Below the pieces are notes generated by a model. That model was not told the origin of the DNA. It ran no database searches and saw only the letters and a program-made list of their open reading frames with translations. DNA of 64,000 nucleotides from Candidatus Chewarchaeum aethiopicum (GTDB taxonomy: Archaea; Halobacteriota; Halobacteria; Halobacteriales; Hikarchaeaceae), in the NCBI GenBank assembly GCA_034190395.1, contig JAXINS010000022.1, positions 42,260-106,259 of the forward strand, written 5' to 3'. Shown here piece by piece: positions 53,299 to 58,406 of the stretch. The translations under genes were made by a program, and so were the position numbers. Position 1 is the first letter of the stretch. Every line of letters begins with the position of its first letter.

Positions 53299-54723
53299 TT
53301 ACACCGCCAGCATGTCGATGACGATCACGAGCAAAAGAGCCCCGAGGTACGCGTTCGAGGCGTGAAACGCCCGGAAGGCGGCCCGCGTCGAGCGGTCGTG
53401 ATGGAGTCGGACGACCGCCCAGAGGAAGACCGCCCCAAAGGCGACGCCGGTTACTGCCGTCGGGACGCCAAGCGGACTCACCGCGGCCAGCAGTGTCGTT
53501 GCCACCAGCGTCGCGCCGAGATACCACAGAATGTGTTTCCGGGTCGTCGCGTCCCCCCGGACCACCGGCATCATCGGGAACCCGCCGCGTTCGTAGTCTT
53601 CCTTGTACGCTAACGCGAGGTTATAGAAGTGTGCCGGCGTCCACAGGAAGATCACGGTCGCGAGCAACAGCGCCGGTGTGCCGATCGTCCTCGTCGCCGC
53701 GGCCGCTCCGATCAATGCCGGAAACGAGCCCGCAAGTCCCCCGATAACCGTGTTCTGGACGGTATTGGGTTTCAATACCAGCGTGTAGATCACGCTGTAA
53801 TAGAGAATCGCCGCCAGCCCGAGCGCGGCAGCCAGGACGTTGATCGAGAGGAAGACGGCTACGGAGGCGGTTGCCAGCATGATGCCAAAGGCCGTTGCGT
53901 TGCGGACGCCGACCTCGTCGGTCGCGAGGGGTCGGTCAGCAGTGCGTTGCATCCGGCGGTCAATATCCCGTTCCAGCAGGTGATTGAACGTCCCGCTTGC
54001 CCCGATCGCGAGAACGCCACCGACCATCGTAGCCACGACCGTCGAGACGGTGAGCGCTTCCCCGGCCGCCAGCGCCATCGCGGCCGCGGCGACCAAACAC
54101 AGCAACCACATCAGTCGTGGTTTCATGAGCCGTCCATAGGCGCTGAGCCGTCGGATCAGCCTCGATCGTGTCGCGGTCGTGGTCGCGGTGTTCTGTGATT
54201 CCGATGAAGCAGGGGTCGCGTTCGTCGTTGGGGTCGGTTCCGGTTTTGGGGTCGTTGGATCCGGATCAGCCGCCTCGTCCGGTTCGAGTGTCCAGGCCAG
54301 CGCTCCCAACAGACACCCAAACAGACCCATCCCGGCGACCAGATGAAGGAACGCGACGGGGGTTGCTGCGCCGGTGATGGCCGTCATTGCTCCGATTCCG
54401 ATCTGGATCGGATATAACACGAGAGCGCCGAGCAACGCAGCCTGGACCCGCCGTTGGTCGGTCGCCCGGACGCCGGTAACGACGGCTGCGATCAATATGA
54501 TCCCGACGACGGCCGCGATCAGGCGATGCCCCCACGCGATCGCCAGCCGTGGCTCATCCAGCGGGATGATCCACCGTCCCCCACACGTCGGCCACGTTTG
54601 GCATGTCGTGATAGCGTCGGTGATCGCCGTTGTTGCCCCGGCCATCAGGAGGACGTACACCCCAATCGTCGCGCCCGCCAGAAGCCACCCACGCTGCGTG
54701 ACGGAGGATTCGCCACGAAACAT
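53299..54723 (-). CDS. ctaB: Heme o synthase (protoheme IX farnesyltransferase) with an N-terminal CtaA-like domain
   Basis: N-terminal C..WP.C and HR; L.KPR, D..M.RT..RP, WTP.HF and DY...G.PM motifs. Confidence 0.9.
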   Translation of the reverse strand: MFRGESSVTQRGWLLAGATIGVYVLLMAGATTAITDAITTCQTWPTCGGRWIIPLDEPRLAIAWGHRLIAAVVGIILIAAVVTGVRATDQRRVQAALLGALVLYPIQIGIGAMTAITGAATPVAFLHLVAGMGLFGCLLGALAWTLEPDEAADPDPTTPKPEPTPTTNATPASSESQNTATTTATRSRLIRRLSAYGRLMKPRLMWLLCLVAAAAMALAAGEALTVSTVVATMVGGVLAIGASGTFNHLLERDIDRRMQRTADRPLATDEVGVRNATAFGIMLATASVAVFLSINVLAAALGLAAILYYSVIYTLVLKPNTVQNTVIGGLAGSFPALIGAAAATRTIGTPALLLATVIFLWTPAHFYNLALAYKEDYERGGFPMMPVVRGDATTRKHILWYLGATLVATTLLAAVSPLGVPTAVTGVAFGAVFLWAVVRLHHDRSTRAAFRAFHASNAYLGALLLVIVIDMLAV

Positions 54724-54940: not shown

Positions 54941-55135
54941 ATGGCGACCGGTACGGTAGACTTCTTCCACGACGAGAAGGGTTACGGCTTTATCGCGACT
55001 GAGGATTCCGACGACGACGTGTTCTTCCACATGGAGGACGTCGGTGGCCCCGATCTCGAAGAGGGCCAGGAAGTCGAATTCGACATCGAGCAGGCCGATA
55101 AAGGCCCGCGCGCGGTCAACGTCACGCGGCTGTAG
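54941..55135 (+). CDS. Cold-shock protein
   Basis: G.V.FF...KGYGFI, DVFFH and KGPRA.N motifs; TTAAAA box upstream. Confidence 0.95.
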   Translation: MATGTVDFFHDEKGYGFIATEDSDDDVFFHMEDVGGPDLEEGQEVEFDIEQADKGPRAVNVTRL

Positions 55136-55235
55136 CCGGCGGCGTACACCCGTCTTCGCCCGTTGTCGCTCGTACCTGAGCGACGAGCCGCGGGTGAGCC
55201 GGCGGCTTATTATCCCGGCGATCCACAGGGTGAGT

Positions 55236-55670
55236 ATGCCGGAGATCACGGTTAACGACGAGCAACTCGCGTATCTCGACCGTCTCAGCGACGAGCTCGC
55301 CGCCGAGCATGCCGGACCGTACAGCACGGTTAGTCGGCGGGACGCACTGCAGTATTTGATCGACAGCTACGAAGGCGATCTTGAGGGGTCCGGTATCGAT
55401 GCTGACGCTGATGCTGCCGAGGATTCAGCCGCTGACTCGGCGTCGGCGTCCGCTGCGGACGGGGATGGAGAGGGCGATGACGATGCAGCGACACCCGACG
55501 ATGAGGAAGACCGGCTCAACGCGATGATGAACCTCCTCGAAACTCACGACGACAAGTGGGAGGAAGCCGAGGGCGAGGACGGCCGTTACGCCGTCGAACT
55601 CCCCGACGGTGAGGTCGAACACGTCCGGACGAAAGACGACGTCCGTGCCGTGCTCTTCAAGAATTACTAA
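55236..55670 (+). CDS. Hypothetical protein: RHH-like N-terminus, acidic linker, unannotated C-terminal domain
   Basis: MPEITV(beta)-helix-GPY-helix; D/A/G-rich linker; C-terminal HDDKWE...RY.V.LPDG...VRAVL..Y; TTATTA box about 25 nt upstream. Confidence 0.8.
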   Translation: MPEITVNDEQLAYLDRLSDELAAEHAGPYSTVSRRDALQYLIDSYEGDLEGSGIDADADAAEDSAADSASASAADGDGEGDDDAATPDDEEDRLNAMMNLLETHDDKWEEAEGEDGRYAVELPDGEVEHVRTKDDVRAVLFKNY

Positions 55671-55672
55671 GC

Positions 55673-56194
55673 ATGTCGCTGTTGGCCAGATTTCGACAGT
55701 GGGTTCGCTCGCTTTTCGGCGCCAGCGAGGCCGACTCCGAGACGACGACTTCCGAGACGGACACCGCGACAGCCCAGCCGGACTACGTCTGTGCCGTCTG
55801 TGGGACGTCCGTCGACACCCCGGAAACGTCCTGTCCGCTCTGTAAATCGACCGACATCCGGCCGGCCGACGGGGACGACGAGAGCGATCCGTCGACGACC
55901 GGCGGACTGGGGCCTGCCACCGCTCGGGAAACCCGGATGGCCGACGATACCGGCGCGGCCTCGAAACTCCAGGAACTAAAAGCGGGCGGCGGGGATCCGC
56001 TTGATCGCCATGCCGATCGGTGGGAGCGACTCGATTCCGGGGAACGCTATCGGGTGACCCTGGCCGACGATTCGGTCAGACACGTCGACTCAAAGGAGCA
56101 AGTCCGTGCTGTGCTGTTACGATCCTACGGTCACGACAGCGAAAACGAGGACAACGGAAACGGAGACGGGGACAGGGACAGAAACGAGCGCTGA
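55673..56194 (+). CDS. Hypothetical protein: amphipathic N-terminal helix, zinc ribbon, same C-terminal domain as the upstream gene
   Basis: MSLLARFRQWVRSLFG; CAVC...CPLC; HADRWE...RY.V.L.D...VRAVL..Y; starts 2 nt after the upstream stop. Confidence 0.78.
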   Translation: MSLLARFRQWVRSLFGASEADSETTTSETDTATAQPDYVCAVCGTSVDTPETSCPLCKSTDIRPADGDDESDPSTTGGLGPATARETRMADDTGAASKLQELKAGGGDPLDRHADRWERLDSGERYRVTLADDSVRHVDSKEQVRAVLLRSYGHDSENEDNGNGDGDRDRNER

Positions 56195-56408: not shown

Positions 56409-58406
56409 ATGTCTGACATCGAAGACGACGTGACTATCGAAGCGCGACTGTCGGAACAGGACTACTTCCGCCCGCCGACCGATTTCATCGGCCAGGCGAA
56501 CGTCAGCGATCCGGATATCTACGATCGATTCGATGACTTCCCCGAGGGGTTTACCGAGTACGCCGAACTCCTCGATTGGGAATCACGCTGGGATGACGTG
56601 CTCGACGACTCGAATCCGCCGTTCTACGAGTGGTTCGTCGGCGGGGAGCTCAACGCGAGTGCCAACTGTATCGACCGGCATCTCGACGAACGAAAGAACC
56701 AGACTGCGCTGCTCTGGGAAGGTGAGGACGGCGAGCAGCGCAACATCACGTATCAGGATCTCTACCGGCAGGTCAACGAGATGGCCGCCGTACTGCAGGA
56801 CGTCGGCGTCGAGGAGGACGACGTCGTCACGCTCCATCTCCCGATGGTCCCGGCCCTGCCGATCACGATGCTGGCATGTGCCCGGATCGGCGCCCCACAC
56901 TCGGAGGTGTTCGCCGGTTTCTCGGCAAGCGCGCTGGCCGACCGGATCGACGACGCCGACTCCGATGTCGTCGTTACCGTCGACGGCTACTACCGGCGTG
57001 GTGAACTGCTCAACCACAAACAGAAAGCCGATCAGGCCCTTGAGGAGGCCGACACCGACGTCGATACCCTCCTCGTTTGGGAACGCCACGAGGGCGAACT
57101 TCACGACGATGTCGAACTCGAGGAGGGCCGTGACATCCTCGTTTCGGAACTCCTCGAACAACACGAACGGGCCCGCGTCGAACCGGTCACCCGGGACGCC
57201 GAGGATCCGCTCTTTTTGATGTACACCTCCGGCACTACCGGGAAACCCAAAGGCTGTCAACACCGCACGGGTGGCTACATGGCCTACGTGACGGGGACCT
57301 CGAAGTACGTCCTCGACATCAAACCCGAGGACACCTACTGGTGTGCGGCCGACATCGGCTGGATTACCGGCCACAGTTACATCGTCTATGGCCCGCTCGC
57401 GCTGGGGACCACGAGCGTGATGTACGAGGGCGCGCCGGATCACCCCCACAAGGCCCGCATCTGGGAGATCGCCGAACGCTACGACGTGGACATCTTCCAC
57501 ACCTCCCCGACGGCCGTCCGGATGTTCATGAAGTGGGGCGAGGACCTCCTCCAGGAATACGACTTCGACTTCCGGCATATGACGACCGTCGGCGAGCCGA
57601 TCCAGCCGGAAGCCTGGCTGTGGTATTACAAACACATCGGCGACGAGGACGCGGTCATCGTCGATACGTGGTGGCAGACCGAGACCGGCGGCCACCTGAT
57701 CACGAACCTCCCTGCCCTGGATGACATGAAACCCGGCTCCGCGGGTAAACCGGCGCCGGGCATCCAGCCGGCGATCTACGACGACAACGGCGACCCGATC
57801 GAACCCAAGAGCGGCCAGGCGGGCAATCTCGTCATCGAGAAGCCCTGGCCGTCGATGCTCCAGACAGTGTACGGCGACGACGAGCGGTTCATCGACGAGT
57901 ACTGGCGTGATTTCTCGGATGTCAACTCCGACGATCCCGAGGATTGGGTCTACAAGGCCGGCGACGGGGCGGTCCACGCACAGGACGGCTACTACCGCAT
58001 CCTCGGCCGGCTCGACGACGTGATGAACGTCGCCGGCCACCGGCTGGGCACGATGGAACTCGAATCCGCCGTCGCCGAGGTCGAGGACGTCGCCGAGGCC
58101 GCCGTCGCCGCCCGCTCGGATCCGGAGAAAGGCGAGGTACCCGACGTCTACGTTACGCTCCGTGAAGGCATCGAGCCGACCGACGACGTCCGCGACCGGA
58201 TCATCCAAGCCGTCGAAGACGAGATCGGCGCGTTCGCTCGCCCGGCGAACGTGATGTTCGTCGATGATCTCCCCAAAACCCGGTCGGGGAAGATCATGCG
58301 GCGACTACTTGAGGACATCTCGAACAACAACGACCTCGGTGACACGACGACCCTCCGCGATCCGTCGGTCCCCGAACAGATCCGCGAACAGATCCACGGG
58401 GACTGA
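56409..58406 (+). CDS. acs: Acetate--CoA ligase (AMP-forming acetyl-CoA synthetase)
   Basis: YTSGTTGKPKG, DIGWITGHSY, VGEPI, DTWWQTETG, GR.DDV and LPKTRSGKIMRR motifs. Confidence 0.96.
   Translation: MSDIEDDVTIEARLSEQDYFRPPTDFIGQANVSDPDIYDRFDDFPEGFTEYAELLDWESRWDDVLDDSNPPFYEWFVGGELNASANCIDRHLDERKNQTALLWEGEDGEQRNITYQDLYRQVNEMAAVLQDVGVEEDDVVTLHLPMVPALPITMLACARIGAPHSEVFAGFSASALADRIDDADSDVVVTVDGYYRRGELLNHKQKADQALEEADTDVDTLLVWERHEGELHDDVELEEGRDILVSELLEQHERARVEPVTRDAEDPLFLMYTSGTTGKPKGCQHRTGGYMAYVTGTSKYVLDIKPEDTYWCAADIGWITGHSYIVYGPLALGTTSVMYEGAPDHPHKARIWEIAERYDVDIFHTSPTAVRMFMKWGEDLLQEYDFDFRHMTTVGEPIQPEAWLWYYKHIGDEDAVIVDTWWQTETGGHLITNLPALDDMKPGSAGKPAPGIQPAIYDDNGDPIEPKSGQAGNLVIEKPWPSMLQTVYGDDERFIDEYWRDFSDVNSDDPEDWVYKAGDGAVHAQDGYYRILGRLDDVMNVAGHRLGTMELESAVAEVEDVAEAAVAARSDPEKGEVPDVYVTLREGIEPTDDVRDRIIQAVEDEIGAFARPANVMFVDDLPKTRSGKIMRRLLEDISNNNDLGDTTTLRDPSVPEQIREQIHGD

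Follow-up and report, generated by a model that had tools for sequence, protein, structure and literature searches.

An alpha-beta3-alpha C-terminal domain common to two adjacent haloarchaeal genes and its proposed association with the actin homologue volactin

Candidatus Chewarchaeum aethiopicum (Halobacteriales; Hikarchaeaceae) carries, in a 64,000-nucleotide stretch of contig JAXINS010000022.1 (assembly GCA_034190395.1, positions 42,260 to 106,259 of the forward strand; henceforth the window, in whose numbering plain coordinates are given), two short adjacent genes that we call A and B. They lie on the same strand, are separated by a spacer of 2 nt and specify proteins that end in one and the same C-terminal domain (CTD). 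An earlier note, made from the letters of the window alone, had read them as a co-oriented pair behind one TATA-like box, with a ribbon-helix-helix (RHH)-like head in A, a helix and a CxxC..CxxC ribbon in the N-terminal part of B, and the common domain borne on an acidic linker in both. The coordinates, orientation, spacing and box all hold when the open reading frames (ORFs), their translations and the sequence are inspected, and the structural models recover the helix and ribbon of B as well as the linkers, which are predicted to be disordered in B as in A (predicted local distance difference test, pLDDT, below 50). The parts of the two genes are as follows, with pLDDT values from the AlphaFold2 models:

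55236..55670, + strand: gene A, 144 aa; ATG at 55236, TAA at 55668-55670 (ORF and translation)
55236..55391, + strand: A residues 1-52, RHH-like head; coil 1-7, helices 8-26 and 34-51; pLDDT 82-91
55392..55496, + strand: A residues 53-87, acidic disordered linker; pLDDT <50 for 53-77 and 79-86
55497..55667, + strand: A residues 88-144, CTD; pLDDT ~90; predicted volactin-binding module
55673..56194, + strand: gene B, 173 aa; ATG at 55673, TGA at 56192-56194 (ORF and translation)
55673..55720, + strand: B residues 1-16, basic/aromatic N-terminal helix; modelled helix 3-15, pLDDT ~68; candidate membrane-targeting helix
55781..55864, + strand: B residues 37-64, CxxC..CxxC zinc ribbon; knuckle pair at 38-64, pLDDT ~93
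55925..56128, + strand: B residues 85-152, 'ETR...KLQELK' helix motif followed by the B-type CTD (BLASTP against A; model)
56129..56191, + strand: B residues 153-173, acidic low-complexity tail (translation); pLDDT 53-61

The domain common to the C-termini of A and B is real. BLASTP yields a single significant segment between the two proteins (A 101-144 against B 110-152; E 7e-10), which contains the 20 identities in 44 positions that the earlier note had counted by hand, and outside it A and B are not alignable, in keeping with its remark that the remainder of the two is unrelated. In the coding DNA, the 55-nt stretches 55603-55657 and 56064-56118 share 71% of their positions in register, and a profile-profile comparison (hhalign) of the B-like family introduced below with the A family gives a probability of 97.0% (E 8.1e-11, 55 columns). 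The AlphaFold2 models (A from a 70-row alignment, mean pLDDT 75.2; B from 10 rows, mean pLDDT 71.7) place the same helix/three-strand/helix order in both, at pLDDT of about 90-96: the elements are helices 88-98 and 100-103, strands 108-113, 116-121 and 127-130 and helix 133-143 in A, and helices 93-105 and 109-112, strands 117-119, 126-129 and 135-138 and helix 141-152 in B, where pLDDT reaches 94-96 over about 110-150 and drops to 65-72 over the first CTD helix. A structure search with both models (VIA, about 48,000 PDB representatives) gave no row at Z>=5, and the CTD fold is therefore named here only as an alpha-beta3-alpha topology. The top CTD row for both was SERRATE (3ax1_A; Z 4.8, root-mean-square deviation 4.4 and 59 aligned residues for A; Z 4.5, 2.9 and 62 for B), followed by ARS2, YkuJ and several dsRBDs at Z of about 3; judged on the models, these rows reflect a common alpha-beta3-alpha arrangement and identify no family. 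As to the loose resemblance to the MBD-type fold that the earlier note had suspected, no MBD-type chain stands among the 50 structure rows shown for either model, the best of which are SERRATE/ARS2 and dsRBD-like at Z <5. PDB sequence searches with the A profile and the CTD profile returned nothing below E 0.49, and a protein atlas search led back only to clusters of the family itself, with a single weak RHH_1 lead besides.

A CTD profile built from 28 rows and run against 1.84 billion representative proteins retrieved 238 at E<=0.001, with 161 at E<=1e-10. Of the 150 listed rows, all except 7 have the match running to within 2 residues of the end of the protein; four of the seven are long repeat proteins of bacterial type, which match many times over and only in the 'V.LPDG' part and which we judge spurious, and the others are two short odd ORFs and one B-type protein. 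The search of the window's own genome found only the copies in A and B, besides two chance-level matches (E 0.02 and 0.19). Polyphosphate kinase 1 of Halomicrobium and Halosimplex has an acidic linker and a CTD-like tail (L.DRHEDRW ... Y.YAVRTPDG ... helix) in four clusters (proteins P0266-P0270; L088:6989-9586 on the minus strand in genome G077, and L089 in G146). Its match to the CTD profile is weak, at 22.9 bits, and not significant against the whole library; by its sequence this tail may be a third architecture of the CTD module.

On sequence grounds A is a member of an unnamed and moderately widespread haloarchaeal family. With a word-indexed search, 228 relatives were retrieved at E<=0.001, of which every named one is a haloarchaeal 'hypothetical' protein, and pattern checks find the head and a CTD at the C-terminal end preserved in 120 listed relatives. 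The CTD is the most conserved part of the protein; the linker varies in length among orthologues, some of which have HhH (PF12826/PF14520) or Rho_N (PF07498) modules inserted, and in one relative (P0262) the same CTD follows a canonical CopG-like head. Among the named carriers are Haloarchaeobius, Natrinema, Natrialba, Natronococcus, Halorubrum, Haloplanus, Halorubellus, Halarchaeum and Salinigranum, and no Haloferax record occurs among the best 80 of 167 A loci. A is mostly chromosomal; in Halostella pelagica (plasmid unnamed3; L037) and Salinibaculum litoreum (plasmid unnamed2; L098) it is located on 100-kb plasmids. In the uncultured archaeon A07HN63 (L154), one 8-kb locus has two ORFs of the A type whose Rho_N-type inserts and CTDs (88 and 87 bits) are nearly identical; A may have been duplicated there recently, or the assembly may contain a repeat. 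Over residues 1-57 the structure search brings up many RHH proteins, namely TraM (Z 4.5/4.4), MatP (4.4), NikR (3.9), ParD2 (3.6), the RHH domain of PutA (3.5), AmrZ (3.3), TacA and CdbA; with all these rows at Z 3.2-4.5, the head is RHH-like, as the earlier note had it, and not proven to be an RHH domain. Foldseek with the A model against PDB gave no match at E<=0.001, Pfam and NCBIfam gave no family for A at E<=1, and curated RHH families matched the 70 A-family members only below threshold (SeqA_N in two, ParD in one). We infer that the head is probably dimeric and DNA-binding.

This family is tied to volactin by its distribution, by gene order and by a controlled model of the complex. Volactin, described in 2024, is reported as an apparently essential, dynamic actin homologue that is needed for the timely rod-to-disk shape change of Haloferax volcanii (PMC10869688). 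Among 151 sampled genomes of the order, A was detected at E<=0.001 in 56, of which 53 were kept after the removal of three weak matches (the polyphosphate-kinase tails of G077 and G146, and G054, which contains a stop), and volactin, called by Pfam PF25216 at E<=1e-20, was found in 67. Both occur in 51 genomes, A alone in two (the window's own and G060), volactin alone in 16 and neither in 82. The same pattern recurs within individual lineages: A and volactin are each present in 1 of 12 genomes of one family (f15) and in 1 of 4 of another (f14), in both cases in the same genome (G118 and G059, respectively) and as adjacent genes; they go together in the same 4 of 5 genomes of a third (f4); and in a Halorubrum-type genus (g12) six of seven genomes have both and one has neither. 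In families f18, f12 and f11, volactin occurs in the absence of A.

We surveyed the gene neighborhoods by clustering all ORFs (stop-to-stop) within 7 kb of A at the 53 loci. In 12 of them, no more than about 1.5 kb separates A from volactin (PF25216, E 5.9e-137), and in 18 a four-pass DUF7139 membrane protein (PF23600, E 2e-43; CdpA-like) stands within about 2.6 kb; the remaining genomes with both genes encode volactin at another place in the genome. The complete genome G064 has on one strand a small zinc-ribbon gene, A, a B-like gene, DUF7139 and volactin. In an overlapping set of named organisms, the best 80 of 167 loci have volactin within 4 kb of A in 10, DUF7139 in 15 and a B-like gene in at least 9. 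Halostella pelagica, in which A is on the plasmid (G040, contig C4), has volactin together with its DUF7139 neighbour on the main chromosome. The family f13 and some f8 and f5 genomes also have second volactin-family matches in long open frames of about 770-1250 aa (G072:C38:30224-31171 and G084:C1:411632-412576, both roughly 12-14 kb from A; also G133, G044, G141, G106 and others), which by their sequence suggest fused or extended volactin paralogues.

The predicted contact comes from an ESMFold2 model of three chains, namely the volactin of the window's genus-mate (11-row alignment), B 70-156 and, as the scored partner, A 88-144. The interface confidence score (ipSAE) for A's CTD was 0.85, 0.83 and 0.84 in three runs; it fell to 0.00 and 0.02 when the partner was replaced and to 0.00 when volactin was replaced with B kept. 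Partner pLDDT was at least 84 and at least 88% of the contacts agreed between runs. The A side of the modelled interface comprises residues 90-100, 103, 114-117, 131-135, 137-138 and 141-142, and includes the near-invariant L94, M97, M98, L100, T132, K133, D134, D135, A138 and F141; the volactin side comprises 118, 130, 133-134, 137, 148-151, 154, 165-166, 184-189, 191, 320 and 323. In a profile alignment with the closest solved relative of volactin, MamK (E 5.8e-5), volactin 148-159 falls on the hinge segment after subdomain IA and 184-189 just past the phosphate-2 motif. These elements presumably line the IA/IIA cleft, which we take to be where ParR binds ParM and where many proteins bind actin. 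A's CTD also touches B in this model, at B residues 99, 102-103, 109, 112 and 149-154. The earlier note had proposed that the domain, as a homotypic or common-ligand module, could tether DNA to the membrane or hold a regulator there; a direct tether through contact between A and B is on its own unsupported, given the score of 0.00 with volactin replaced, a value that gives no verdict on, and is no evidence against, binding of A to B.

B has a narrower history than A. Apart from the 99%-identical P0122 we found two relatives, both encoded beside the closest orthologues of A. A wider, fast-evolving B-like family is nevertheless recognizable by sequence: such genes stand directly downstream of A in 14 of the 53 loci, with stop and start codons overlapping or nearly touching, and their products combine an N-terminal helix, an acidic linker, an optional CxxC..CxxC ribbon (7 of 14) and an 'LDP....ETR..ATDDAVDKLR' helix motif. 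The pattern of the helix, M-G/S-L-L-x-R-L-R-x-W..., is conserved in 10 of 10 aligned B-like proteins, and an N-terminus of the same kind is present in all 14. The CTD is absent from 11 of these 14, and a second CTD beside A occurs in just three of the 53 loci, namely those of the window, of its genus-mate G134 and of G060, which belongs to the same family; the best 80 named loci add one more case (L095, at 36 bits). All three B-type copies fall into a single clade (local support 0.9); their median identity to A-type CTDs is 24-42%, and from this confinement and single clade we take B's CTD to be a lineage-specific acquisition. The sharing of the domain by two neighbouring genes, on which the earlier note had centred, thus stands for the window's lineage and not for B-like genes at large, an outcome that the note had named in advance as counting against its reading and that applies here in part. 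The general unit is the CTD of A. As hhalign places the B-like 'DDAV..L' motif on the first helix of A's CTD, B-like proteins without a CTD seem to keep just that helix. Zinc-ribbon matches of B in Pfam all lie below the curated cut-offs (best HypA, 21.2 bits against a cut-off of 28.9), and neither Pfam nor NCBIfam gave a match to a toxin family. With its helix, B is a candidate membrane anchor.

The motif recurs in the membrane proteins. DUF7139 is found in 138 of the 151 genomes, with 1-5 matches in each, and the DUF7139 tails encoded beside A carry 'ETRTTSGTVDDAVSQLKGLQGG', the same motif as in the B-like proteins, a second element, 'TDDQAAALRELR', and a terminal amphipathic helix that resembles the N-terminus of B. 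Across loci L036-L087 these tails show two conserved short helices, 'ETR..G.VDDAV..L..LQGG' and 'TDDQ.AALRELR', before the terminal amphipathic helix. In Haloferax volcanii the CdpA-like HVO_2016 adjoins volactin (HVO_2015), and the same study calls the role of the C-terminal region of CdpA unknown (PMC12126565); the region hvo_2013 to hvo_2020 is suspected to act in shape control according to another (PMC10869688). In several families a small zinc-ribbon protein (M.CPRCGG.L..Y.LG....C..CG[FY].G ... ESWEEA) is repeatedly encoded beside A or close to the pair of DUF7139 and volactin genes (L061:7549-7899, minus strand; L090:2413-2661, plus strand; also L051, L062 and L081); its Pfam matches (DUF7351, DUF7838 and Zn_ribbon_TFIIB) are all sub-threshold.

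The remaining features around the A-B pair are these:

53299-54723, - strand: single 474-aa ORF, CtaA/UbiA-type fusion, further upstream of A
54941-55135: cold-shock-domain (CSD) gene upstream of A; PF00313, E 6.5e-22
55206..55213, + strand: TATA-like box CTTATTAT, ~27 nt 5' of A's ATG, read from the sequence
56409-58406: acetyl-CoA-synthetase-type gene downstream of B

The 53299-54723 ORF joins a COX15/CtaA-like N-terminal part (PF02628, partial) to a UbiA prenyltransferase part (PF01040), and its product is, as far as these domains tell, a fused haem A synthase/haem O synthase-type protein. Synteny of A with the cold-shock gene, which the earlier note had suggested following up, proved limited to the genus, with a CSD gene upstream of A in only 2 of 30 loci (the window and its genus-mate). 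The box CTTATTAT is a putative promoter element of A, at a distance of about 27 nt from the ATG that we take to be compatible with a leaderless haloarchaeal transcript; a sigma-70 promoter and terminator scan, the model of which is not applicable to archaea, gave no match. A 13-nt direct repeat (AGCCGGCGGC.TA; 55134-55146 and 55197-55209) flanks the intergenic region between the cold-shock gene and A, and a 9-nt inverted repeat (55186-55207) overlaps the box. These repeats could be an operator for the RHH head of A, or chance in GC-rich DNA.

We propose that the CTD is a volactin-binding module, which would make A and B filament adaptors comparable to ParR and CorR, and we regard this as having about an even chance of being correct. 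The CTD, of about 55 residues, would bind volactin; in A, a flexible acidic linker would connect it to the RHH-type, probably dimeric and DNA-binding head, and in B of the window's lineage a diverged copy would be joined to the N-terminal amphipathic helix and zinc ribbon as the candidate membrane anchor. A on the DNA side and B on the membrane side would together couple both to volactin or its filaments, and in many genomes the neighbouring CdpA-like four-pass protein would take the membrane role of B. DNA binding by A, membrane binding by B and volactin binding by the diverged copy in B are inferred, as is a part of the pair in shape or in the positioning of the nucleoid or plasmids. The earlier note had entertained a homotypic or common-ligand module, and the latter idea now has a candidate ligand in volactin from co-occurrence and the complex model, with support at the level of a model. 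The 'DDAV..L' motif in the B-like proteins and DUF7139 tails suggests, by its sequence, a simpler version of the same contact. A broader formulation, which we consider unlikely though worth stating, sees a whole family of volactin adaptors with one and the same short volactin-binding helix at their core, which in A has grown into a folded domain and in B-like proteins and CdpA-like tails occurs by itself. Here A would bind a centromere or the nucleoid, and volactin filaments would position or segregate chromosome copies or the 100-kb plasmids besides shaping the cell, as an independently evolved counterpart of ParMRC that is archaeal and chromosomal and in which B and DUF7139 serve as membrane anchors; the CTD module may also be borrowed to place other cargo, such as polyphosphate kinase.

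The earlier note recognized no described system with this architecture, which remains true of the family; close functional analogues do exist in the ParMR/CorMR actin-adaptor systems. ParR of ParMRC is described as a small protein that has an RHH head at its N-terminus and binds, with its C-terminal part, an actin-like ATPase encoded nearby (bioRxiv 10.1101/2025.06.27.661541). A is likewise small, with an RHH-like head and a C-terminal part predicted to bind an actin homologue that in some genomes is encoded close by, and its predicted contact is on the cleft side of the actin fold. The differences are these: ParR binds its filament with a short terminal peptide, whereas A would use a folded domain of alpha-beta3-alpha topology, borne on a long acidic linker; volactin takes the place of ParM; and A is mostly chromosomal, is adjacent to the actin in only 12 of 53 loci and has a different gene order. 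No ParR or ParG family was matched in Pfam or NCBIfam, nor did the A profile have any PDB sequence match at E<1. In the CorR/CorM system of Anabaena, a chromosomal ParMR system turned cell-shape cytoskeleton, the adaptor is said to bring actin-like filaments to the membrane, with the N-terminal amphipathic helix of CorR directed to the membrane and its C-terminus to the filament, and a role in cell shape rather than plasmid segregation (bioRxiv 10.1101/2025.06.27.661541); volactin is likewise presented as a shape factor (PMC10869688). B recalls the amphipathic-helix end of CorR. CorR unites the helix, RHH and filament peptide in one protein, whereas in the present pair the RHH-like head belongs to A and the helix with the zinc ribbon to B, each with a copy of the CTD of its own; the two systems have no sequence relation and come from different domains of life. 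The layout of B recalls that of CdpC (HVO_0399, DUF7093), the FtsZ1 membrane anchor of Haloferax volcanii, in which an amphipathic helix with a zinc finger at the N-terminus is reported to be connected, through a long disordered linker, to a small domain at the C-terminus that binds a cytoskeletal protein (bioRxiv 10.64898/2026.07.16.738847). B differs in being about half as long, in lacking a zinc finger in its C-terminal domain and in having volactin rather than FtsZ1 as its proposed partner; no DUF7093 match was found in B at E<=1, and it has one CxxC..CxxC pair (40-58) and no cysteine in the C-terminal domain. Among CdpA and the CdpA-like DUF7139 proteins (HVO_0739; HVO_2016; PMC12126565), those beside A and volactin likewise have a disordered linker and a small C-terminal region. 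Their tails resemble the B-like proteins in the 'ETR..DDAV..L' helix motif and the terminal amphipathic helix; they are integral membrane proteins with four transmembrane segments, unlike A and B, which are soluble or peripheral.

Several observations weigh against volactin binding as the function of the CTD, or against parts of the scheme built on it. The 16 genomes with volactin and no A indicate that A is not needed for volactin as such, and the sampled genomes are related rather than independent, so that a Fisher test on the two-by-two table overstates the coupling. No volactin match was found in the window's own genome (80.8% complete) or in the A-carrying G060 (82% complete). In the genus-mate G134, DUF7139 and then volactin lie on a contig other than that of A, and this locus with its flanks has no counterpart in the window's assembly except histidine-kinase paralogues; the missing flanks make an assembly gap in the window's genome possible, without demonstrating it. 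The two sampled Halomicrobium genomes whose polyphosphate kinase has the CTD-like tail have no volactin match either, and if the homology of that tail is real, the module can serve a partner other than volactin. As for the complex, ipSAE is a confidence of the model and not a measurement, so that the model supports volactin binding without demonstrating it; of 80 solved complexes 58 attain the mark applied, and of 110 mismatched pairs 2 do so, counts that are only a rough guide here, as our runs used three chains and their own alignments, unlike the calibration set. The CTD copy in B lacks equivalents of L94, M97 and M98 of A, and the amphipathicity of its N-terminal helix is modest (hydrophobic moment 0.59, charge +3, reached by 10% of shuffles). 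On the DNA side, every RHH structural match of A's head is below Z 5, and near A, in the window and L061, there is no centromere-like (parC) repeat array, only two-copy 13-nt repeats.

The same data allow the contact to be placed elsewhere. The CTD could bind the tails of DUF7139 proteins and B through 'ETR..DDAV..L' instead of volactin, so that A would be held at the membrane and its link to volactin would be indirect, by way of the DUF7139-volactin gene pair. We think this quite improbable. The tight succession of A and B-like genes in 14 loci would fit it, as would the more frequent presence of DUF7139 than of volactin near A (18 against 12 of 53 loci), the motif common to B-like proteins and DUF7139 tails, the B residues touched by A's CTD in the three-chain model and the polyphosphate-kinase tail in genomes that have DUF7139 and lack volactin. 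The near-universal presence of DUF7139, though, leaves the patchy, volactin-like distribution of A unexplained; the alignment of the motif with A's own first helix suggests parallel use of one motif rather than a lock-and-key pair; and the score vanished when volactin was replaced and B kept, which is weak evidence.

Two other explanations dispense with a structural adaptor or with the cytoskeleton altogether. A might be an ordinary RHH regulator, the CTD of which dimerizes, senses a small ligand, or senses free volactin so as to adjust the expression of cytoskeleton genes, with B titrating A or forming a heterodimer with it. Its RHH-like head, its small size, the TATA-like box with short inverted and direct repeats just upstream and the existence of haloarchaeal RHH regulators of division genes, such as CdrS as mentioned in PMC12126565, all speak for it, and a duplicated domain is compatible with homotypic pairing. 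However, the most conserved part of A is the CTD, set on a long disordered linker in a layout typical of tethering modules; the HhH and Rho_N inserts suggest non-specific nucleic-acid contact; volactin offers a predicted partner surface; and pairing between CTDs is unsupported when volactin is removed, which is no evidence against such pairing. We rate a regulator of this kind as quite improbable as well. Far more remote, in our estimation, is the idea that the pair is an RHH module of incidental or mobile nature, for instance a cassette for plasmid maintenance or of antitoxin type, and that its co-occurrence with volactin mirrors nothing but shared ancestry. Many of the structural rows for A's head are indeed RHH antitoxins, two carriers have A on 100-kb plasmids and the relatedness of the genomes inflates the co-occurrence counts; against this, A has no toxin-like partner, B matches no toxin family, the single genomes with both genes in f14 and f15 have them side by side, and the complex model passed its controls.

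The literature covered by a full-text search, as far as its accessible portions go, names no volactin partner and links volactin to no ribbon-helix-helix protein. A and B are the first concrete candidates for such partners, from an unnamed family of 238 representative clusters whose distribution follows that of volactin, and the predicted interface offers named residues that can be mutated. The common helix motif, moreover, brings in the membrane proteins related to CdpA, for whose C-terminal domains no role is known. Were the proposal true, haloarchaea would possess an actin with adaptors on both the DNA side and the membrane side, analogous to ParR and CorR and yet of independent origin and with a new binding domain, and what volactin holds on to would become a directly testable question.

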